From an uncultured Dictyoglomota bacterium (GTDB lineage: Bacteria > Dictyoglomota > Dictyoglomia > Dictyoglomales > Dictyoglomaceae): DNA of 64,000 nucleotides. The stretch spans positions 123,986 to 187,985 of the forward strand of contig CAZZIO010000065.1 in NCBI GenBank assembly GCA_964654465.1, in the 5' to 3' direction. The position numbers and the translations under genes were made by a program. This document shows, one piece after another, positions 52,512 to 64,000 of this stretch (positions are counted from its first letter, which is position 1; every line of letters starts with the position of its first letter). A model generated the notes under the pieces. That model searched no databases. It was not told where the DNA came from and saw only the letters and a program-made list of their open reading frames with translations.

Positions 52512-53282
52512 ATGAGAATAAAATTAACATATGAAAGCCTAGATGGGGACATAATACTTCCAAAACATTATAACTACCATATTCAAGCTCTCATATACAA
52601 AACTTTTACCCCTGATCTTGCCACCAAACTTCATAATGTAGGTTTTCCCTTAGGAAAAAGAAGATTTAAACTTTTCACCTTTTCCCGCATATTAGAAAAA
52701 GGAATTCCCACAAAAGATAATGAAAAATTAATATTCAAAAGAAAAATAACCATATATTTCTCTTCTCCCATAGAAGATATAGTAGGGAATTTAGCTGAAA
52801 GAAGTTTTAAAGAAAGAGAATTTAAATTATGCAATAAAAAGATATACATCTCTCAGCTTGAAATAGTAACTACTCCAAAGATAGAAAATAAAGTAATAAT
52901 TAAAGCTTTATCCCCTATTACCATATACAGCACTTTATATAAAAAGGATGGTGAAAAAATTGTACATTATTACAAACCAATTGATAAAGAATTCTCAAAA
53001 CTTATTGAGAAAAACGCAAAGAAAAAATATCATCTTCTTTACGGAAAAGATGCAGAACAAATGTCTCTTGAAATAAAACCTTTAAAATTCTCAGTACAAG
53101 AAAACTTAAAAATTATAAAATTTAAGGACACCATTATAGAAGGATACACTGGCATCTACGAACTCCTAGGGGATCCAGAATTAATTTATCTCACCTACGA
53201 GACAGGCTTAGGAAATAAAAATTCAGCAGGATTTGGAATGTGGGAAATATGGAGAGGAAAGGAGAGTGATGAAGATGCTTGA
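52512..53282 (+). CDS. cas6: CRISPR endoribonuclease Cas6
   Basis: YN..IQ.LIY, LHNVG, FKLFTFS, LSPI, C-terminal Gly-rich loop GLGNKNSAGFG. Confidence 0.95.
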   Translation: MRIKLTYESLDGDIILPKHYNYHIQALIYKTFTPDLATKLHNVGFPLGKRRFKLFTFSRILEKGIPTKDNEKLIFKRKITIYFSSPIEDIVGNLAERSFKEREFKLCNKKIYISQLEIVTTPKIENKVIIKALSPITIYSTLYKKDGEKIVHYYKPIDKEFSKLIEKNAKKKYHLLYGKDAEQMSLEIKPLKFSVQENLKIIKFKDTIIEGYTGIYELLGDPELIYLTYETGLGNKNSAGFGMWEIWRGKESDEDA

Positions 53283-55026
53283 TGCGGTTAAAGAGATAGG
53301 AGATATATTACTAAAAAAGGATATCAAAAACCAGATTGAAATCCTTATAGAAGATCCAAACCCTAACCAAAAATATAATAACGTTTTTTGCTTAACTTTT
53401 GAAGAAAATGGTGAAATAAAGTATATAGGAATTGAACTTGAAGACTATGAATCAGACAAGATAATAAAATACCTATACAGAAGCGGACCCTCTAACGGAC
53501 CTAACTTTACACCTTCAACAAAAGTTACAGAGATAGAAAAAACTCTATACATTAAAGTTTTAAATTGGTTCAAAGATGTGTTTTCCCGAAAAAATTTAGA
53601 GCTATCCAAAGAGGAAAAAGAGTATTTAGAAAAGATTTATACAGTATTAAAAAATCACGAAAATGAAATAATTGAGGAATTTAAGCAAAAATCAAAAGAC
53701 ATTTCGAAAAAGGAAGGTATATTTCTAACCTTAAAATTCAAAAAAGAAGGAAAAACAGAATATATAGGAGACAAGGAGGTTTTTATAAAAACCTTAGAAA
53801 AATTGGTAAAAATAAAAGAGAGTAAAAAAGGTTCTAATATAGGCCAATGCTCTATATGCTTAGAGGAAAAAGAAGTTACCATAGGAGACGGTATATATGC
53901 CTTCTATACAATAGATAAACCAGGATTTATCTGTGGTGGTTTCAAAGAAAAAGAAGCATGGAAGAATTTTCCATTATGTGAAGATTGTAGACGAAGTTTA
54001 GAAAAAGGAAAAGAATACATTGAAAAAGAGCTTACTTTCAAAATGGCAGGAATTTCTTATCAACTTATTCCTAAATTCCTCTTAGGAAGGGAATTTATAA
54101 AAGAAGATGTTTATAATATATTTTTCGATACTCCAAAACTGCTATCTCTAAAGAAAAATACTGCCAAGAGATATCTTGGAGATGAAGAAGATATTTTACA
54201 GTATTTATCTGATACCGAAGATTACATTACTTTAAACTTTTTATTTATAGAAAGAAAACAAAGTGCAGAAAAAATCCTTGCACTCATAGAAGATGTTTTA
54301 CCCTCTCGACTAAGAAGTATATTTAAAGCAAAAGAAAAAGTAGATAAGTTATTTAACACAGATTTCACTATGAGAAATCTATGGACATTCTTTTCAAAAT
54401 CAGATCCTGACAAAAGAGAAACAGACCTTGTAAATTACTTTTTAGAAATTGTAGATCGCATATTCAAAGATAGATCCATAGACAAAAATTTCATATTTCA
54501 ATTTTTTACGAGGAAAATAAGAACTCAGTATGTTAGAGATGAATATTTCTCCTATGTAGTAAAAGATGCCCTAATGTCACTTTTGTTTCTACTTTATTTA
54601 GATTTAATCCCTATGGAGGTGATAAATATGGAAGAAGAAAGATTATTTGAGCCTATATTTAAAAAATTTTCTCCAACTTTCAATCATCCTATTAAAAAGG
54701 GACTTTTCTTGCTCGGCGCCTTAACCCAAATGCTATTAAATGTACAATATTTAGAAAGAGGTAGTGATCCTTTTAGAAAACAACTAAAAAGTTTAAAAAT
54801 GGAAGAAAAAGACTTTAAAGGGCTTCTTCCAAAAGTAATAAATAAATTACAAGAGTACGATTCCTTTGATATAGGAAAACAAAAATTAGCAGAAGAAGCT
54901 TCCTACTATCTACTTCTCGCTGGAGATAACTGGAAACTTTCAAATGATGAGCTTAATTTCTACTTTGCATGTGGTATGAACCTATTAGATGAACTAAAAC
55001 CATATATTTATCCAGACAAAAAATAA
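53275..55026 (+). CDS. cas8b: Type I-B Cascade large subunit Cas8b (TM1802/Csh1-like)
   Basis: Position in the operon; CSIC...LCEDC Zn motif, FYTIDKPGF, YFACG. Start 53275 or 53269. Confidence 0.88.
   Translation: MLDAVKEIGDILLKKDIKNQIEILIEDPNPNQKYNNVFCLTFEENGEIKYIGIELEDYESDKIIKYLYRSGPSNGPNFTPSTKVTEIEKTLYIKVLNWFKDVFSRKNLELSKEEKEYLEKIYTVLKNHENEIIEEFKQKSKDISKKEGIFLTLKFKKEGKTEYIGDKEVFIKTLEKLVKIKESKKGSNIGQCSICLEEKEVTIGDGIYAFYTIDKPGFICGGFKEKEAWKNFPLCEDCRRSLEKGKEYIEKELTFKMAGISYQLIPKFLLGREFIKEDVYNIFFDTPKLLSLKKNTAKRYLGDEEDILQYLSDTEDYITLNFLFIERKQSAEKILALIEDVLPSRLRSIFKAKEKVDKLFNTDFTMRNLWTFFSKSDPDKRETDLVNYFLEIVDRIFKDRSIDKNFIFQFFTRKIRTQYVRDEYFSYVVKDALMSLLFLLYLDLIPMEVINMEEERLFEPIFKKFSPTFNHPIKKGLFLLGALTQMLLNVQYLERGSDPFRKQLKSLKMEEKDFKGLLPKVINKLQEYDSFDIGKQKLAEEASYYLLLAGDNWKLSNDELNFYFACGMNLLDELKPYIYPDKK
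54628..55026 (+). CDS. cas11: Probable internally translated small subunit Cas11 (132 aa), in frame within cas8b
   Basis: SD GGAGGTG at 54615-54621, then in-frame ATG at 54628; helical product MEEERLF...FLLGAL...YFACG. Confidence 0.7.
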   Translation: MEEERLFEPIFKKFSPTFNHPIKKGLFLLGALTQMLLNVQYLERGSDPFRKQLKSLKMEEKDFKGLLPKVINKLQEYDSFDIGKQKLAEEASYYLLLAGDNWKLSNDELNFYFACGMNLLDELKPYIYPDKK

Positions 55027-55043
55027 AATAGGAGGTGTTTTAG

Positions 55044-55955
55044 ATGGGTGTGCTAAAAAATAGATCTGAAATTCTTTTTCTCTATGACGTAACAGATGCA
55101 AATCCAAATGGTGATCCAATGGATGAAAACAAACCAAGAATAGATGAAGAAACAGGAACAAATATTGTTACAGACGTAAGACTTAAAAGAACAATAAGGG
55201 ACTATTTATATGAATATAAAGGGTTAGAAGTTTTTGTCAGAGAAATAAGAGATGATAAAGGAGAACTAAAAACTAAAGAAGATAGATTAAAGGAATACAA
55301 AGATAATAATGAGATTATTGAAAAATGCATTGATATAAGACTCTTTGGAGCAACCACTGCAGTAGAAGGGAAAACCATGACTTTAACTGGACCAGTACAG
55401 TTTAAATTTGGAAGATCTCTTCATAAAGTTGATCTGACTTATATAAAAGGTACAACAGTCATGCCATCAAAATCAGGCAAAACTCAAGGTACATTTACTG
55501 AAAAATACATTCTTCCTTATTCTTTAATAGCCTTTTATGGAATAGTAAATGAAAATTTAGCAAAAGTCCAAAATATTCCCCTTACCGAAGAAGATATCGA
55601 TCATATGTTAGAAGGAATTTGGCATGGTACAAAGAACCTGATATCTACCTCAAAATTTGGTCAAGTTCCAAGATTATTAATACAAATTATCTATAAACCT
55701 GACTCATATTTTTACATAGGCGAATTAGATAGAAGAATAAAACTTATATCAGATATAGAGGATGAAAAAATAAGAGATATATCCCAAGTAAAAATAGACA
55801 TCACAGAACTAATAAAGGTATTAACGGAAAATAATAATAAAATTGAAAAAATCAGATATAAAGTAGACGAAAGAGTAAACTTAGTATTAGACGGTAAAGA
55901 AGTATCGTTAAATGAGTCTCTAAAAGATTTCCAAGCAGAAGAACTACCGATTTAG
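55044..55955 (+). CDS. cas7: Cas7b/Csh2
   Basis: NPNGDP..ENKPR, VTDVRLKRTIRDY, DIRLFG, TGPVQF. Confidence 0.95.
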   Translation: MGVLKNRSEILFLYDVTDANPNGDPMDENKPRIDEETGTNIVTDVRLKRTIRDYLYEYKGLEVFVREIRDDKGELKTKEDRLKEYKDNNEIIEKCIDIRLFGATTAVEGKTMTLTGPVQFKFGRSLHKVDLTYIKGTTVMPSKSGKTQGTFTEKYILPYSLIAFYGIVNENLAKVQNIPLTEEDIDHMLEGIWHGTKNLISTSKFGQVPRLLIQIIYKPDSYFYIGELDRRIKLISDIEDEKIRDISQVKIDITELIKVLTENNNKIEKIRYKVDERVNLVLDGKEVSLNESLKDFQAEELPI

Positions 55956-55968
55956 GAGATGATTTTTA

Positions 55969-56685
55969 ATGAAAGTCTTGGTTTTTGATATTTTTGGAGA
56001 ATTTGCCCATTTTAGAAAATTCTATACCACATCATCTCCCCTTTCCTTTCCTTTTCCTCCCCCTCCTACCATATTCGGTATGCTTGGAGCTATTTTAGGA
56101 ATAGATAGAAAAGAATATTTAGAAACATTTTCCTTTAATAATTGCAAAATAGCTTTGCAAATTATAAATCCTATTAAAAAGATAAGATTAGGCTTAAATT
56201 TGATAAACACAAAAGGAAACATTTGGATACCAGTCAAAAAGAAAAACCATGATGCAAGAACCCAGGTAAAAACAGAGTTTATTAAAAATCCAAGATATAG
56301 AATATATTTTTACCATAAGAATGAAGAATTATTTAATAAATTTGTAGAAAATATTAAAAACCATAGAAGTTATTACACATTCTCTTTAGGCCTTTCAGAA
56401 CTTTTAGGAGATTTTCAGTTTGTTGGAATAAAAAACTTTACAGAGAAAGAGAATAATGAAATTTATGTATCCACAATAATCCCTATATCCCAAATATTAG
56501 AAAACAAGATAATTTTTGAGGAAGGAAAAAGCTATTTTAAAGAAAGAATTCCATTAATAATGAATAGTAATAGAATAGTAGAAAGATACGAAGATATTAT
56601 CTTTGAAAGCCAAGGAAAACCCATCAAAGTTAAAATAGATAAATTTTATCAAGGAGAAGATGGAACAAATGTCATATTTCTCTAA
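55969..56685 (+). CDS. cas5: Cas5b
   Basis: FDIFGEFAHFRK..T.SS.LSF.FPP..T.FGMLGAILG, LGLSE. Confidence 0.93.
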   Translation: MKVLVFDIFGEFAHFRKFYTTSSPLSFPFPPPPTIFGMLGAILGIDRKEYLETFSFNNCKIALQIINPIKKIRLGLNLINTKGNIWIPVKKKNHDARTQVKTEFIKNPRYRIYFYHKNEELFNKFVENIKNHRSYYTFSLGLSELLGDFQFVGIKNFTEKENNEIYVSTIIPISQILENKIIFEEGKSYFKERIPLIMNSNRIVERYEDIIFESQGKPIKVKIDKFYQGEDGTNVIFL

Positions 56686-59023
56686 TTTATTTTCCCATCC
56701 AAATAAATATTTAGAAGTACACTTAAATAACACTATGAATCTTGCTATCAGTTTCTTAAACGATGTACCTATGGAAAACTTATTCCTATCAAAGGAACAA
56801 CTACAAAAATTAATAAAAATTAATACTTTATCCCATGATATAGGAAAAGCTACAAGTTTTTTCCAAGAATATTTACTTTCTGGAGAGGAGGAGGGAAGTA
56901 AAGAAACAAGGCACTCTCTCCTCTCCTCCTTCATTGCTTATTACATCACTAAGAAAGTTTTTGAAAAAGAAAATATTTCGGATAATATCAAAATAATACT
57001 CCCCATGTTCTCTTATATAAATGTTAAAAGGCATCATGGAAATTTTTTAGACATACTCATAGAAATTGATATTTCTGAAGAAGATAAAGAATTGCTCTAT
57101 AGACAAATTGAAAGTATAGATGAAGACAAATTTAATATATTGATAAAAAATATTGATGAAGCTTTATTTAGTGAAATTACAAAAGATAAACTTAAAGACA
57201 TCGTAGAAGCAGTATCAAAAGATATAAAGATTAAAAGAATAAAAATCAAAAACCTTAAACACGAAAATGCTACAGAATACTACTTATTAAATAACCTACT
57301 CTTCTCCCTCTTAATAGATGCAGACAAAAGTGAAGTAACTATAGGAAAGCCAGAAAGAAACCCCTTAGATATTCCATACATAGTAGTAGATCATTATAAA
57401 AAAGATTTAAAAACTGACAAAAAACCTATAAATGAGCTTCGAGAAAATGCATATCAAGAAGTAATAAACAAAAAGATTGACCTTGATCAAAAAATTTATT
57501 CTCTAACTCTCCCAACAGGTCTTGGAAAGACCTTCATTTCTTTTGCCTTCGCCCTTAAGCTAAGAGAAGAAATAAGAAAAAAGAAAGGATATACCCCAAG
57601 AATTATATACTCATTACCTTTCCTAAGTATTATAGAGCAAAATGCAAGTGTACTCGAAAAAGTCCTAATAAAGTATTTTGGAAACATAGATTCTACCATA
57701 GTATTAAAACATCACCACCTTTCGGAAATCTACTATACATACAATGACAATGAAATAGAGCCTGACCATGCAAAAATATTAATAGAAGGCTGGAATTCAG
57801 AGATAATAATAACTACATTTGTACAACTATTTCATACATTGATATCAAATAAAAATTCAAATCTAAGAAAATTACATAGAATATTTGGAAGTATTATCAT
57901 ATTAGACGAAGTACAATCTATTCCTATTAAATATTGGTACCTTTTAAGGGAAATATTTAAAGAACTTGTAGAAAAATTTAATACCTATATTATTTTCTCT
58001 ACAGCAACTCAACCCCTTATATTTAAAAAGGACGAAACCCTCAACTTAACAAACGCTGAAGACTACTTTACAAAATTAAATCGCACAATATTAATTCCTC
58101 GTCTTAATGAATCTCTCTTATTAGAGGAATTCATTGAAAACATTGACATCAAACTTGACAAATCTTATATGTTTATCTTTAATACAATAAACTCAGCTCA
58201 AAAATTTTACAGTCTTTTAAAAGAAAAAACTAAGGAAGATATAGTTTTTCTTTCAAGCCACATAATACCAAAGGATCGTTTAGAAAGAATCGAGAGTATA
58301 AAAAAAGGAGAAAAAAGAATAGTGGTTACAACTCAATTAGTAGAAGCAGGTGTGGATATTGATTTAGATATTGTTTATAGAGATATTGCACCCTTGGATT
58401 CTATAAACCAATCAGCAGGAAGATGTAATAGAAACTGGTTAAAAGATATAGGAGAGGTATATCTATATTCATTACAAGATGATAAAAGAAGATATGCTTC
58501 ATACATATATGACAAAATTCTTTTGGATGTTACTAACAATATTCTTAAAAAAGATGAAAAAATTGAAGAAGTAGAATTTCTCAACTATATACAAAATTAT
58601 TTTTATGAGATTAATGAAAGAAAGGCCAAAGACATATCTAAAAACTTCTTGGATGCAATTTATTCATTAAGATATTCGGGATATACAGAAAATGAAAATG
58701 ATAAATATATAGGTATTGAAGATTTCAAACTTATTGAAGAAGATCAACCCAAGATTGACGTATTTATAGAATTAAATGAAGAAGCAGAAAATCTATGGAA
58801 TCAATATATAAAACTTAAAGAAATAAAAGATATTTATGAAAGAAGAATAGAATTCCTAAAAATAAAAAGTAATTTCTATAAATATGTAATATCAATCCCT
58901 GTAAGAGCAGAAAATCTACCAGCTATTGAATATGGCTTTGGATATATATCTAAGGATAATTTAGAAGATTTCTATGACAAAGAAACAGGATATAAAATTA
59001 AAAGCGGTATCCTACTCTGGTGA
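56660..59023 (+). CDS. cas3: Cas3 HD nuclease-helicase
   Basis: HL, HDIGK, RHS, HHG, DAD; LPTGLGKT, LDEVQ, STAT, TQLVEAGVD, QSAGRCNR. Confidence 0.96.
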   Translation: MEQMSYFSNLFSHPNKYLEVHLNNTMNLAISFLNDVPMENLFLSKEQLQKLIKINTLSHDIGKATSFFQEYLLSGEEEGSKETRHSLLSSFIAYYITKKVFEKENISDNIKIILPMFSYINVKRHHGNFLDILIEIDISEEDKELLYRQIESIDEDKFNILIKNIDEALFSEITKDKLKDIVEAVSKDIKIKRIKIKNLKHENATEYYLLNNLLFSLLIDADKSEVTIGKPERNPLDIPYIVVDHYKKDLKTDKKPINELRENAYQEVINKKIDLDQKIYSLTLPTGLGKTFISFAFALKLREEIRKKKGYTPRIIYSLPFLSIIEQNASVLEKVLIKYFGNIDSTIVLKHHHLSEIYYTYNDNEIEPDHAKILIEGWNSEIIITTFVQLFHTLISNKNSNLRKLHRIFGSIIILDEVQSIPIKYWYLLREIFKELVEKFNTYIIFSTATQPLIFKKDETLNLTNAEDYFTKLNRTILIPRLNESLLLEEFIENIDIKLDKSYMFIFNTINSAQKFYSLLKEKTKEDIVFLSSHIIPKDRLERIESIKKGEKRIVVTTQLVEAGVDIDLDIVYRDIAPLDSINQSAGRCNRNWLKDIGEVYLYSLQDDKRRYASYIYDKILLDVTNNILKKDEKIEEVEFLNYIQNYFYEINERKAKDISKNFLDAIYSLRYSGYTENENDKYIGIEDFKLIEEDQPKIDVFIELNEEAENLWNQYIKLKEIKDIYERRIEFLKIKSNFYKYVISIPVRAENLPAIEYGFGYISKDNLEDFYDKETGYKIKSGILLW

Positions 59024-59026
59024 AAT

Positions 59027-59518
59027 ATGATTACAGGAAGTTTAATTGAGAGTTTCTTAATATGCGAAAGACAAGCATGGCTTATGGCCCATCAAATAAC
59101 TCCAGACCAAGACCATCCATACTTAGAGCTTGGTAGATTAATAGATGAAGAAAGTTTTACAGACGAAAAGAAAAAAATAAGCTTAGAAAACATGATTATA
59201 GACCTTATAAAAACTGAAAATAAAACATTAATTTTAGGAGAGATAAAAAAGAGTTCAAAAGTGCAAGAAATCGCCAAAATTCAACTCGCTTTTTACCTAT
59301 ATTCTCTTAAAAATAACTATGGCATAAAAGCTGATGGATTACTTATATTTCCCAAAGAAAAAAGAAGAGTTAGAGTAGTATTAGACAAAGAATTGGAAGA
59401 GAAAATTGAGGACACTATTAAAAGGATCGAGATTCTCATATATAAGGGAAAACCCCCGTTACCCCAAAAAATTCCTTATTGTAAACTCTGTGCATATAGG
59501 GAGTTTTGCTGGTCATGA
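59027..59518 (+). CDS. cas4: Cas4
   Basis: CERQAW, EIKKS, QL.FY, C..CAY..FC Fe-S cysteines. Confidence 0.95.
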   Translation: MITGSLIESFLICERQAWLMAHQITPDQDHPYLELGRLIDEESFTDEKKKISLENMIIDLIKTENKTLILGEIKKSSKVQEIAKIQLAFYLYSLKNNYGIKADGLLIFPKEKRRVRVVLDKELEEKIEDTIKRIEILIYKGKPPLPQKIPYCKLCAYREFCWS

Positions 59519-60510
59519 GTGAAAGTATATATATTTTTACTAGTGGGGAATTAAAAAGGAAGCACAATACTATATATTTTGAAACTTCTGATGGTCAGAA
59601 AAAATATTTACCAATAGAAAATGTAAGAGACTTACATATATTTGGTGAGGTAACTTTAAACAAAGAAATTTTAGAATATCTATCTCAAAAAGAAATAATT
59701 CTCCATTTTTACAATTACTATGAATATTATGTGGGAAGTTTTTATCCAAGGGAGCATTACAATTCAGGATATATGATTCTAAAACAAGCAGAATATTATT
59801 TAGATCAAGAAAAAAGACTAGAATTAGCAAAAAGTTTTGTAAAAGGAGCTATTGATAATATAAGAAAGGTTTTAAACTATTATACAAATAGAGGTAAGGA
59901 TTTATTAAAATCTAAAATACAATCCATAGAAGATTTGGCTGAAGGTATTGAAGGTTGCAAAAAAGTAGATGAAATCATGGGATTAGAAGGTAATATAAGA
60001 GATATTTATTATTCTTGTTTCAATGATATTACAGAAAATGAGGATTTCTTCATTAAGGAAAGGACCAAAAGACCACCTTCTAATTATATGAACGCCCTTA
60101 TAAGCTTTGGAAATTCCCTACTCTACACAGCAATCCTCTCTGAAATATACAAAACCCATTTAGATCCAAGAATAGGATATCTACATGCTACAAACTTCAG
60201 AAGATTTTCCCTTAATTTAGATATAGCAGAGATATTTAAACCAATAATTGTGGATAGAATTATCTTTTCTATGGTAAATAAAAAAGAGATAACACCTAAA
60301 GATTTTGACGAAAAATTGGAAGGTGTATACCTTAAGGAAAAAGGGATGAAACTCTTTGTGCAAAACTTTGAAGAAAAAATGAAAACTACTATTCAATATA
60401 AAGATTTAGGAAAAATCTCTTACAGAAGATTAATAAGATTAGAACTCTATAAACTTGAGAAACATTTATTAGGAGAAGAAAAATATTCTCCTTACATATC
60501 TCCTTGGTAA
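59515..60510 (+). CDS. cas1: Cas1 (type I-B)
   Basis: GEL.RK.NT, YVGSFYP, MGLEG, R.KRPP.N.MNALISFGN, GYLH, LDIAEIFKP. ATG 59515 overlaps the cas4 stop (ATGA). Confidence 0.96.
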   Translation: MSESIYIFTSGELKRKHNTIYFETSDGQKKYLPIENVRDLHIFGEVTLNKEILEYLSQKEIILHFYNYYEYYVGSFYPREHYNSGYMILKQAEYYLDQEKRLELAKSFVKGAIDNIRKVLNYYTNRGKDLLKSKIQSIEDLAEGIEGCKKVDEIMGLEGNIRDIYYSCFNDITENEDFFIKERTKRPPSNYMNALISFGNSLLYTAILSEIYKTHLDPRIGYLHATNFRRFSLNLDIAEIFKPIIVDRIIFSMVNKKEITPKDFDEKLEGVYLKEKGMKLFVQNFEEKMKTTIQYKDLGKISYRRLIRLELYKLEKHLLGEEKYSPYISPW

Positions 60511-60774
60511 ATGTATATAATAATGGTTTATGATGTAAATCAGAAAAGAGTTAATAAAGTACTAAATACAGCAAGAAAGTATTTAGAATGGATACAAAAT
60601 TCTGTTCTTGAAGGAGAAATTACAGAAGCAAAATATGAAAGACTAAAAAGAGAAATAGAATTAATAATAGATGAGGAAGAAGATTCTGTTATTTTCTACA
60701 TTATGAGAACCACAAAATATTCGGAAAGACAGATAATAGGAATAGAGAAAAATAAAAGAGAACAGATATTATAA
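60511..60774 (+). CDS. cas2: Cas2
   Basis: VYDV, RV.KV, YL.WIQNSVLEG, EDSV.FY. Confidence 0.96.
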   Translation: MYIIMVYDVNQKRVNKVLNTARKYLEWIQNSVLEGEITEAKYERLKREIELIIDEEEDSVIFYIMRTTKYSERQIIGIEKNKREQIL

Positions 60775-61224
60775 AAGACTTTTATATATATCTAGCACTT
60801 TTCTTTTTAAAACTGGATGTATAAAGTCTGGCTCGAGCTCAGAGATAGGTCCCATAACAAAGATCCTATTATGGGCATCAGGATGAGGTATTATTAATTC
60901 TTCCGTTTCAATTATTAAATCATCATAAAATATAATATCCAAATCAATATTTCTCGGACCCCATTTAAAAATCCTTTTTCTTCCCAACTCTTCTTCAATT
61001 TTTAGCAGAACTTTTAATAAGGAAAATGGATCAAGATTTGTCTCTACCAAACAAACAGCATTTAAAAAACTGTCCTGATCTTTATATCCATAAGGTTCTG
61101 TTTCTATTATAGAAGACATTTTTAAAATATTAATTCCTATTTCTTTAATCTTTTCTATAGCTATTTCTATATTTTTTCTTTTATCACCTAAATTACTCCC
61201 TAATGCTATGAAGACCTTATGCAT
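60769..61224 (-). CDS. folK: 6-hydroxymethyl-7,8-dihydropterin pyrophosphokinase
   Basis: ALGSNLG, ETEP, FLNAV, KWGPRNIDLDI, IPHP..NR.FV. Confidence 0.95.
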   Translation of the reverse strand: MHKVFIALGSNLGDKRKNIEIAIEKIKEIGINILKMSSIIETEPYGYKDQDSFLNAVCLVETNLDPFSLLKVLLKIEEELGRKRIFKWGPRNIDLDIIFYDDLIIETEELIIPHPDAHNRIFVMGPISELEPDFIHPVLKRKVLDIYKSLL

Positions 61225-62402
61225 TTTATAGCCTCTATAACATCAATTACTCTCTTATTTTCCTTTACATCGTGAACTCTAACAATATCAACATCCTTAA
61301 GTGCACAAAGAGCTGTAACTCCAAGAGTACCCTCTAATCTTTCCTCAGGAGGAATATCACCTAAAACTTTTCCTATAAAACTTTTTCTTGAAGCTCCTAT
61401 TAAAATAGGTTTTTTCAAACTTTTAAATTCAGTTATTCTGGCTAATATTTCTAAATTATCCTCATATCTCTTTCCAAAGCCTATACCCGGATCAATAATT
61501 ACCTTATCCAGATCAACCCTATATCCCTCTGCATAATTTAATCTTTCTAAGAAAAACTCATATATTTCTTTAATTACATCATCATAATATGGATTTATTT
61601 GCATATCCTTAGGTGTACCTTTCATGTGCATTAAAACATAAGGAATTTTATATTCAGAAATAACTTTGACAAGATTATCGTCAAATCTAAACCCACTAAT
61701 ATCATTTATCATATCTGCCCCCAATTCAATTGCTTTTTCAGCTACTCTTGCTCTATAAGTATCCACTGAAATAAAAATATTTGAAAAATTTTCTCTAATT
61801 ATCTTTACAGCAGGAATAACCCTATTAATTTCTTCCTCTTCATCTACAGGATCAGAGCCAGGTCTTGTTGATTGCCCCCCTATATCAATAATATCTACCT
61901 TGTTTTCTATCATATATTTAGCAGTATTTAAAATCTCTTCTAAATTTATCTTACGAGAATTGGCATAAAAAGAATCTGGGGTCACATTTATTATTCCCAT
62001 TATTAAAGTTCTATCAAAAATTATTTTTCTCTTCCAAGGAGATTCAATATAAGATACTTTATCCTTCTCAAAAAAATTCTTTAAAAGATTATAAACTTTA
62101 GGAATATCGAAATAATTGATATTTTCCAATTTTTTAATAAGAATATCATAATGTTTTTTTGTCCCAAGAAGAATTACATCATTTTTGTTTATTCCACAAT
62201 TAACAACATTTTTATGAACTACAACATCTCCTCCAATAGAAAGCATCTCCTGCTTCAAAATATTGGCAGTAGGAGAAGTAATGTCAAAAATCTTTAATGG
62301 AATAATTCTACTTTTTCTTAGAAAAATTGAAAAAGAATCAAAATGAGCTCCTACTTTTTCCATCTCTTTAATTAAAAAATCAAGTGTTAACTCCATTATC
62401 AT
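61206..62402 (-). CDS. folP: Dihydropteroate synthase with ~130-aa N-terminal extension (reductase-like)
   Basis: MGIINVTPDSF, DIGGQSTRPG, SVDT, INDISG, DPGIGFGK, GASRKSF, RVHDV; N-terminal ANILKQEMLSIGGD. Confidence 0.93.
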   Translation of the reverse strand: MIMELTLDFLIKEMEKVGAHFDSFSIFLRKSRIIPLKIFDITSPTANILKQEMLSIGGDVVVHKNVVNCGINKNDVILLGTKKHYDILIKKLENINYFDIPKVYNLLKNFFEKDKVSYIESPWKRKIIFDRTLIMGIINVTPDSFYANSRKINLEEILNTAKYMIENKVDIIDIGGQSTRPGSDPVDEEEEINRVIPAVKIIRENFSNIFISVDTYRARVAEKAIELGADMINDISGFRFDDNLVKVISEYKIPYVLMHMKGTPKDMQINPYYDDVIKEIYEFFLERLNYAEGYRVDLDKVIIDPGIGFGKRYEDNLEILARITEFKSLKKPILIGASRKSFIGKVLGDIPPEERLEGTLGVTALCALKDVDIVRVHDVKENKRVIDVIEAIKCIRSS

Positions 62403-63180
62403 TCTTTAGCCACCCCTTCTCTACACATGCAAAAGCTTCATGATTATGAATACTTTCAAAACTTATTACTTCCACCCTATACCACTCTATTCTTTTATCC
62501 TTATCCAAAATAAAAACTATATCTCTTACTACATCTTCTACAAATTTTGGATTATCATATGCCATTTCTGTAATATATTTTTCATCTGGACGTTTTAAAA
62601 GAGAATAAATTGGGGCACTTGCAGAACTCTCTGCTATTTCAACTAAATCCTCAAACCATATAAGTTTTTTCGACTTAACTTCTATATTTGCTATAGCTCT
62701 TTGATTATGAGCTCCAAATTCGCTTATCTCCTTAGAACAGGGACAAAGAGTATGAATAGGAACTTTTACCCCTACAACCATCTCCAAATCTTCAAAAAGC
62801 TCCGCCTCAATTATACATTCTATTTTATTAGGAGACTCCATTTGCGAAATTGGAGCCTTTTTCCATATAAAATAAGGGAAAGTAAGTTTTATATGGCTAC
62901 TTTCTGCTTTTAACTTTGTCTTAACCTTCTGCAAAATTCTTTCTAAATTTTCAGGTCTAATTACATCAATTTCATTCAACACTTCTACAAACCTACTCAT
63001 ATGTGTACCTCTTAAATCGTGTCTAAGATCCACAGAAAGATCTATTTTTGCTATCGTATATTGGTGCCCTCTCCTTTGATCAAAAACCTTTATGGGATAA
63101 TAAAAATTCTTAATCCCTACTTTTTTCAGGGATATACCTCTCTCATCTTTTTCATTTTGTACATCTTTTAAATTATCCAC
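62380..63180 (-). CDS. folE2: GTP cyclohydrolase IB
   Basis: DVQ, VGIK, GTHMSRF, TLCPCSKEIS..GAHNQR, LKRPDEK, NPKFVED, ESIHNH.A. Confidence 0.95.
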   Translation of the reverse strand: MDNLKDVQNEKDERGISLKKVGIKNFYYPIKVFDQRRGHQYTIAKIDLSVDLRHDLRGTHMSRFVEVLNEIDVIRPENLERILQKVKTKLKAESSHIKLTFPYFIWKKAPISQMESPNKIECIIEAELFEDLEMVVGVKVPIHTLCPCSKEISEFGAHNQRAIANIEVKSKKLIWFEDLVEIAESSASAPIYSLLKRPDEKYITEMAYDNPKFVEDVVRDIVFILDKDKRIEWYRVEVISFESIHNHEAFACVEKGWLKNDNGVNT

Positions 63181-63529
63181 CTCTATATATCACTCCACTA
63201 TCTGATGTTTCCCATATTTGTACCTCATAAAGAGAAAAATTTTTACCTCTTAATTTTCCTTCTAATTTATTCCAAACCCATATAGCTATATTCTCAGCTG
63301 TGGGTTGTGAGATTATATCATTTATATAACTATGATCCAGTACATCAATAATTTCCTTTTTCACGATATCCTTTAATTCTACAAAGTCCATAATCATACC
63401 TTCCTCATCAGGCTTACCTTCCAAAACTATTACTAATTCATAAGTATGTCCATGTAATCTCTCACACTTTCCTTTATAGCTTACTAAATTGTGAGCTGCA
63501 TCAAATTTAAATTTTTTAATTAGAAACAT
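63173..63529 (-). CDS. queD: QueD/6-pyruvoyl-tetrahydropterin synthase family protein (hybrid PTPS-I/III motif)
   Basis: FDAAH, CERLHGHTY, MDF, LDH..IN, PTAENIA, WET. Confidence 0.9.
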   Translation of the reverse strand: MFLIKKFKFDAAHNLVSYKGKCERLHGHTYELVIVLEGKPDEEGMIMDFVELKDIVKKEIIDVLDHSYINDIISQPTAENIAIWVWNKLEGKLRGKNFSLYEVQIWETSDSGVIYRGG

Positions 63530-63848
63530 TTTTTTACCTTACTCCTTACTTGATTTATATAAACCTCTTAATAAATCTCTATAGATTATACCATTTAAGT
63601 CAAAAATTTATAACTTCTCTATATCATCGTAAGTCTAAATTCTTGTTACATAAAAATCTCAATCAAATTAGGCTTATTCATATTTTTTTGAGATTGACAG
63701 AAAATGTAACAATTAGGGATAACCTTCTTTTATTGCACAACTTGATTCTTACTAATTTCTTAATGATTTTTTATCTCAAATATTTTCCAAAATAGTTCTT
63801 TACTTCATTAGAAAATATTTTAGCTTATTCTTAAAAACTATTTTTACA

Positions 63849-63952
63849 GTCTACCCCCGATAACCCCAAAACCCTGGAGGATCGACAGAAATATAAATTT
63901 TCACATCAAAACCTATTTACATCTAATTTTTCTCATGCTATACTACCAACAA
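63849..63952 (+). promoter_or_regulatory. Probable CRISPR leader with sigma70 promoter
   Basis: GC-rich imperfect inverted repeat GTCtACCCCC...AAAACCCTGGAGGATCGAC (63849-63886) in AT-rich DNA, resembling leaders of thermophile/clostridial I-B arrays; TTTACA (63916-63921), 17 nt, TATACT (63939-63944) with extended -10 TG. Confidence 0.7.
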
Positions 63953-63982
63953 AATTGTAGTGTACCTATAAGGGTAGTAATT
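63953..63982 (+). CRISPR. Single degenerate or truncated CRISPR repeat-like sequence
   Basis: aaTTGTAGTGTACCTATAAGGGtagtaatt resembles 30-nt repeats of the GTTTGTAG..TACCTAT.AGG.ATTGAAAC type but lacks the ATTGAAAC end. No second copy is visible; the window ends 18 nt later. Confidence 0.5.
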
Positions 63983-64000
63983 TTTAGAGAGATCTTTTTT

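Follow-up and report, generated by a model that had tools for sequence, protein, structure and literature searches.

A truncated, handle-less repeat copy in the conserved leader of a type I-B CRISPR array in Dictyoglomaceae

What does a single truncated CRISPR repeat mean when it stands behind an apparent leader and promoter, in the neighbourhood of a complete cas operon? The question is raised by the end of a 64,000-nucleotide stretch from an uncultured Dictyoglomota bacterium (the window; C65:123986-187985, where C65 is a contig of 187,985 bases in a 1.91-Mb assembly of 72 contigs). A first-pass annotation, made from the letters alone, described a CRISPR leader followed by only one truncated repeat, and proposed that the array had collapsed, that it continued past the window, or that the repeat belonged to a crRNA-like regulatory RNA of the CreA/CreR or SRU class. 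The evidence presented here indicates that positions 63690-64000 are very probably the ordinary leader of an actively acquiring type I-B array, served by the module at 52512-60774 and cut by the contig end. The truncated repeat, designated psiR, would be a fixed element of this leader, a copy of repeat positions 3-22 and not a decayed first repeat. The features needed for the argument are as follows.

52512..60774, + strand: type I-B cas operon (cas6, cas8b, cas7, cas5, cas3, cas4, cas1, cas2), assigned with NCBIfam
60769..63529, - strand: folate/pterin genes (folK, folP, folE2, 6-pyruvoyl-tetrahydropterin synthase family), assigned with NCBIfam
63690..63712, + strand: distal conserved leader box GAGATTGACAGAAAATGTAACAA, kept in leaders of G001, G003 (two), G005 and G007
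63846..63891, + strand: GC-rich leader element; relatives have it as an inverted repeat TTTCTGTCGAC...GATCGACAGAAA, whose left arm is degraded in the window
63916..63944, + strand: predicted sigma-70-type promoter (TTTACA, 17 nt, TGcTATACT), from a consensus scan
63953..63974, + strand: psiR, a copy of repeat positions 1-22, 19/22 identical to the genome's repeat
63975..63982, + strand: pseudo-handle TAGTAATT in place of ATTGAAAC, 2/8 match
63983..64000, + strand: cut leader segment of 18 nt, with a T-run inside; uncut, the segment from psiR to repeat 1 measures 31-32 nt

All eight cas genes exceed the curated NCBIfam cut-offs, and together they form a complete type I-B module in one operon: cas6 (TIGR01877, 140.9 bits), cas8b (TIGR02556/TIGR02591), cas7 (TIGR02590), cas5b (TIGR02592), cas3 (core plus HD), cas4 (TIGR00372), cas1 (TIGR03641, cas1b, 468.5 bits) and cas2 (TIGR01573). 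The closest structures to the Cas6 of the window are of the P. furiosus type. Four folate/pterin genes on the opposite strand separate cas2 from the leader, as they do in the same-genus genome G001. In the related genomes G003, G006 and G009, the same leader lies directly after cas1-cas2 of a homologous I-B module, and the folate interposition is therefore a peculiarity of the window genome and G001. From the folate cluster a 470-bp non-coding stretch runs to base 64000, and no credible small ORF was found in the leader; an 81-codon frame at 63550-63795 has no family match.

Base 64000 is also the last base of contig C65, such that the phrase 'only one truncated repeat' describes the assembly and not the genome. 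Within the 64-kb window, a tandem-repeat finder detected no array, and the pattern of repeat core and handle has no instance. The T-run that had been noted at the window edge is indeed present and supplies the final bases (63994-64000); no terminator-like site was found after it in the window leader or in the metagenome contig L039. A 12-mer search of the C65 tail against the genome returned mostly noise and pointed to a second contig, C53. Ends of contigs in this assembly (G000) call for caution, given that the last 250 bases of contig C58 are rich in long G and C homopolymer runs and are apparently of low quality.

Sequence from public metagenomes carries the locus past this limit. Contigs of public sequencing runs align to the window over 63807-64000 only, and those of two runs extend 40 nt beyond base 64000. 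A metagenome scan that used the exact 32-mer at 63960-63991 of the window as query returned 25 contigs, all of which also contain the last nine bases of the window and then, after 13-14 nt more (in four variants), an intact repeat, GTTTGTAGCGTACCTATAAGGGATTGAAAC. The arrays in these contigs hold 14-179 repeats, with spacers of 35-40 nt except for three merged units. Because the search pattern itself fixed psiR in the 25 contigs, they are uninformative on psiR variability. They do carry a record of acquisition: there are 24 distinct first spacers among the 25 contigs, and contig pairs with 29-52 spacers in common differ by extra spacers at the leader end (an offset of 1 for L037/L050, and 3 versus 15 for L041/L042). 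Such differences at the leader end are the expected trace of polarised acquisition, as read from metagenome assemblies that may be chimeric. Across this hot-spring population (L026-L050), 1114 distinct spacers were counted in the 25 contigs, only 112 of them shared. The population data thus show very active acquisition, the newest spacer being different in nearly every contig.

The array of the source genome is itself unassembled, and its continuity with the leader rests on these same-leader metagenome contigs and on C53. The genome's true repeat, GTTTGTAGCGTACCTATAAGGGATTGAAAC, is present in the assembly as one full copy at C53:2-31. In metagenome contig L044 this leader is followed by 81 repeats and then by a flank with the same sequence as the start of C53; because the contig joins the leader through an array to the C53 flank, the source genome most likely reads from the C65 end into the array and on into C53. 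That C53 starts with an intact repeat is accordingly what would be expected of an array broken by assembly. The same-genus complete genome G001 provides a further view of the locus. The last 851 bases of the window align over their full length at one locus of G001, and there the GC-rich dyad, the promoter and the same truncated repeat are followed, after 40 nt, by a 32-repeat array. The leader lies on the transcribed strand, the orientation of the repeat being set by its 3' ATTGAAAC handle and by the cas operon.

These results bear on what the first-pass annotation had asked of the sequence downstream. Its identification of a leader holds, as an array follows in 25/25 contigs and at the orthologous locus of G001, and its option of an array continuing past the window is borne out by the intact repeat 13-14 nt on in all 25 contigs, with which the G001 locus agrees. 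It had recommended inspection of the sequence beyond 64000, naming a normal downstream array as the mark of an ordinary leader, and a normal array with intact repeats is what follows. Two of its statements must be given up: 'only one truncated repeat' reflects the C65 terminus, as external contigs carry the full array, and the leader-proximal repeat is not degenerated, as the true first repeat is intact and the truncated copy is a separate, conserved element of the leader. On its sequence, the locus is of a known kind, a CRISPR leader; its repeat-like motif is family-specific, with a function that is predicted.

The resemblance of psiR to the repeat is close, and it stops abruptly. The 20-mer TTGTAGTGTACCTATAAGGG (63955-63974, + strand) has no second copy in the window, gave no match in 100 shuffles at up to 3 mismatches, and matches the true repeat GTTTGTAGCGTACCTATAAGGGATTGAAAC at 19/20 positions, so that the likeness to the genome's real repeat, which the first-pass annotation had left to be checked, is confirmed. 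Its description of a repeat-like 20-mer without the 3' handle was also correct, ATTGAAAC being replaced by TAGTAATT with 2/8 positions matching. Matches to the leader alone extend to further loci in G001, G003, G005, G006, G007 and G009, which places this leader in 6/10 other family genomes searched and in three genera; in two family genomes the repeat is confined to array fragments that lie at contig ends, and in two more it is absent. psiR is present in 11/11 assembled leader-array junctions from the six related genomes, always without ATTGAAAC, and none of the 11 junctions shows a leader of this repeat type that lacks the truncated copy. The count of 11/11 overstates independence, because the genomes are related to one another and each genome's leaders are nearly identical. 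In every case psiR position 22 lies 37-40 nt before repeat 1.

Conservation within psiR follows a distinctive pattern. Across nine leaders, psiR matches each genome's own repeat at 17-20 of 22 positions, and its invariant columns read TGTAG....CCTAT.AGGG; these coincide exactly with the invariant columns of the true repeat over its 5' 22 nt, the first three bases excepted. The four variable columns of psiR are likewise the variable columns of the repeat, and they differ from the genome's own repeat in 8/9 leaders, from which it follows that psiR is not kept alike by recent copying. By contrast with this internal agreement, the handle segment of the same nine leaders matches ATTGAAAC at only 1-4 of 8 positions, and 0/8 of its columns are invariant. 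As judged from these alignments, the interior of psiR seems to be constrained in the same way as that of the repeat, while the borders of psiR (G1 and the handle) are free or lost. The Rfam model CRISPR-DR2 (RF01315) separates the two kinds of sequence: true repeats reach 48.1 bits, above the gathering score of 37, whereas psiR goes unreported at E up to 1 in L039 and up to 10 in the window. An Rfam search of the last 600 bases of the window gave two chance-level matches only.

How far the arrangement extends was addressed by a one-genome-per-species scan for psiR followed by repeat 1, which covered this repeat family at this spacing and possibly left out near relatives, and which returned nine stretches, two of them the family's own leaders. 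The other seven, all from other phyla, proved to be repeat pairs of the usual kind in which the spacer is short or 1 nt is deleted.

The elements upstream of psiR complete the leader. The distal box core, GATTGACAGAAA, is a direct repeat of 63880-63891, and the 12-mer GAT[CT]GACAGAAA has only two sites in the 1.9-Mb genome, at 63692-63703 and 63880-63891. The motif is also found inverted near 63846-63858 and in relatives forms the arms of the GC-rich dyad, features that make it a candidate binding site for a leader-specific regulator. The GC-rich element as a whole, in which 17/45 columns are invariant across 11 leaders, is likewise a candidate regulator site. The first-pass annotation had called it a GC-rich inverted repeat; the element is real and conserved, but as a dyad it is weak in the window (DNA fold z = -0.45) and clear in two relatives (-2.5 in G003 and -3.5 in G006). 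Over 63807-64000, the only common variant in four public runs is 63853 A>G, which falls inside the degraded left arm. An orphan GC-rich dyad in G003 (L017, G003:C1:193800-195800, about 380-560) stands after two decayed repeats some 69 nt apart, with no array following, and looks like the remnant of an old array-leader junction.

Between the GC-rich element and psiR lies the predicted promoter. The extended -10 promoter of the first-pass annotation is found at the coordinates given there, with TTTACA as its -35 box (63916-63921) and, across a spacer of 17 nt, TATACT (63939-63944) preceded by TG (10/12). The promoter scan is not significant alone (one site found versus 3.4 expected in shuffles), but the alignment of the 11 leaders shows both the -35 and the -10 box at conserved positions, and the same site is present in metagenome contig L039. 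The -10 box ends 8-11 nt before TTGTAG. Transcription would start near 63950-63952, so that psiR would be placed a few bases after the predicted start and the pre-crRNA would begin with psiR. In the leader transcript, 0/17 predicted pairs show a compensatory change and the fold z-score is -0.15; with no covariation and no excess stability over shuffles, a role for RNA structure is unsupported.

The genome carries further CRISPR-associated loci. A second array, unrelated to that of the window's leader, lies on contig C1 of the same assembly together with an I-B module of its own and has the repeat GTTTGATCTGAACTATGTGGGATTTAAAT (C1:1-1150). Of three genomes examined for this second system, two have a short copy of the first 10-15 nt of its repeat (TTTAATCTGA...), which follows closely on a TATAAT box and is separated from repeat 1 by 8-9 nt (C1, L060 and L061 examined), and it is possible that this short copy parallels psiR. 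A third cas6 fragment (50 bits, below the cut-off) at the very start of contig C48 (C48:20-226) suggests a further, unassembled cas locus. A search for type III effectors in the genome gave no Cmr2 match and a Csm1 match of only 19 bits.

Three explanations would deny psiR a present role in the leader of a working array or assign it a different one. That the array collapsed or decayed at this locus in this genome, leaving a degenerate repeat behind, is barely credible: the single repeat-like unit in the window and the one full repeat copy in the assembly are what it would predict, yet the window stops at a contig end, C53 opens with an intact repeat, and long arrays stand behind the exact leader tail in 25/25 contigs, the arrays found being of 14-179 intact repeats. 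Moreover, psiR is equally truncated in relatives with full arrays, and because the truncation there is identical, psiR is not the product of local decay. The proposal that psiR, the next 32 nt and repeat 1 constitute a crRNA-like RNA (CreA/CreR, SRU or mini-array) through which Cascade represses a promoter draws on a repeat-like sequence with its own strong predicted promoter beside a I-B module, on a segment after psiR that is nearly constant in length with partly conserved motifs, and on a preprint report that crRNA-like RNAs are common in I-B loci (10.1101/2023.03.03.530964). Against it, the 8 nt that should act as the handle before the guide are the least conserved part (1-4/8 matches, 0/8 invariant), and from the established anatomy of crRNAs neither Cas6 cleavage nor Cascade loading of a psiR unit without a handle is expected. 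Nor does the pseudo-spacer behave as a guide. Its matches in the genome are low-complexity 11-14-mers at chance level, its best ungapped match to the cas6 upstream region is 19/32 with no target near the cas promoter, and its single 11-mer seed match falls inside a likely coding region on C1. psiR is also not solitary, as only 39-40 nt separate it from a full array. Lacking a handle and a target and adjoining an array, the solitary-repeat RNA suggested by the first-pass annotation is thus very improbable.

A more serious alternative is that psiR is the fossil of an ancient first repeat-spacer unit, functionless now and retained through its overlap with the promoter-proximal part of the leader. 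The dimensions agree, psiR and the following segment spanning about 62 nt and a repeat-spacer unit 66 nt; most leaders contain a second short TGTAG fragment midway that resembles repeat debris, and the decayed repeat pair beside the orphan leader dyad in G003 shows that such debris arises. The distribution of conserved columns argues the other way. In the 11-leader alignment, where mean column identity is 60% and 45/340 columns of the whole leader are invariant, the 5' 22 nt of psiR account for 14/22 invariant columns and are the densest invariant block across three genera, as compared with 6/34 in the promoter segment, 0/23 in the stretch between the GC element and the promoter, 0/8 in the pseudo-handle and 3/31 in the segment before repeat 1. 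In addition, the conserved and variable columns of psiR mirror those of a functional repeat, and the variable ones are not copied from the repeat. An invariant block with repeat-mirroring columns is hard to reconcile with neutral decay, and we consider the fossil origin unlikely.

The reading we put forward, tentatively and at clearly less than an even chance, is that psiR is a functional repeat mimic that is bound, but not processed, by Cas1-Cas2 on the DNA and by Cas6 at the start of the pre-crRNA. What psiR keeps are the internal blocks of the repeat, and what it lacks are G1 and the 3' border; it stands at a fixed distance from repeat 1, with a T-rich tract between. Missing its initial G and its final 8 nt, which make up the ATTGAAAC crRNA handle and cleavage region, and at 37-40 nt ahead of repeat 1, psiR would offer internal repeat motifs to repeat-recognising Cas proteins with neither border present, and would most likely serve as a docking site for Cas1-Cas2 or Cas6 that cannot itself be processed. 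On the DNA, psiR would hold the Cas1-Cas2(-Cas4) integrase beside repeat 1 while being no integration site itself; on the nascent transcript, it would bind Cas6 without being cut and without yielding a crRNA. We prefer the DNA-level reading, integrase docking, whose probability in our analysis approaches one half, and regard the RNA-level reading, Cas6 binding, as doubtful. What probability remains is shared among action at both levels at once, the involvement of another factor, and the absence of any present function.

Several features of known systems make such docking conceivable. In P. furiosus-type Cas6, as a review describes it, an unstructured repeat RNA wraps around the protein. Cas6 of this type holds the 5' part of the repeat, distant from the cut site. 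For integration in P. furiosus, the repeat G1 has been identified as a key determinant. The CCTAT and AGGG blocks of psiR may correspond to the two mid-repeat motifs of the type I-B system of Haloarcula, judging from our own alignment to the Haloarcula repeat. That system is reported to anchor the adaptation complex through these two motifs, which in Haloarcula hispanica are AACCC and GTGGG, and its repeat resembles that of the window in being 30 nt long, in its similar layout and in an ATTGAA(A/G)C-type handle (PMC4872114).

The leader as a whole also has counterparts. In types I-E and I-F, the integrase is reported to bind leader motifs upstream of repeat 1, the upstream motif of I-E acting with IHF and the inverted-repeat motifs of I-F being bound by Cas2; leader motifs are likewise described as important in Sulfolobus I-A and in Thermococcales. 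The window leader is like all of these in having conserved blocks about 60-300 bp upstream of repeat 1, a fixed spacing to the junction, an A/T-rich tract between, and acquisition at the leader end. Unlike in the accounts of those leaders that were consulted, its proximal motif copies repeat positions 3-22, and docking is here predicted from the sequence. A comparison with SRU, mini-array and CreA/CreR elements runs along similar lines: like psiR, they are degenerate repeats outside an array in a I-B locus, and they have their own promoter, as psiR is predicted to have; they keep a handle by a guide that partly matches a promoter and are found between or beside cas genes (10.1101/2023.03.03.530964). 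psiR differs from them in having neither a handle nor a detectable target and in forming part of the leader of a full array. From Rfam CRISPR-DR2, which the true repeats match, psiR stands apart as well. Our literature searches found no leader motif described as a handle-less repeat copy, no study of CRISPR leaders in this family, and no account of array polarity set by a repeat mimic in bacterial type I-B systems that lack a known IHF-type site.

Two implications follow from these findings. For the annotation of CRISPR loci, where a contig ends in what looks like a solitary or degenerate repeat, an unassembled array is the first thing to consider. For the biology of type I-B systems and of thermophilic bacteria, this leader lends itself to a clean mutational test of how the integrase finds the first repeat, because it is compact and strongly conserved and has as its proximal motif a truncated repeat at a fixed distance. 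If the proposal is true, a repeat mimic in the leader would mark which repeat is first, or would load Cas6 onto the nascent transcript.
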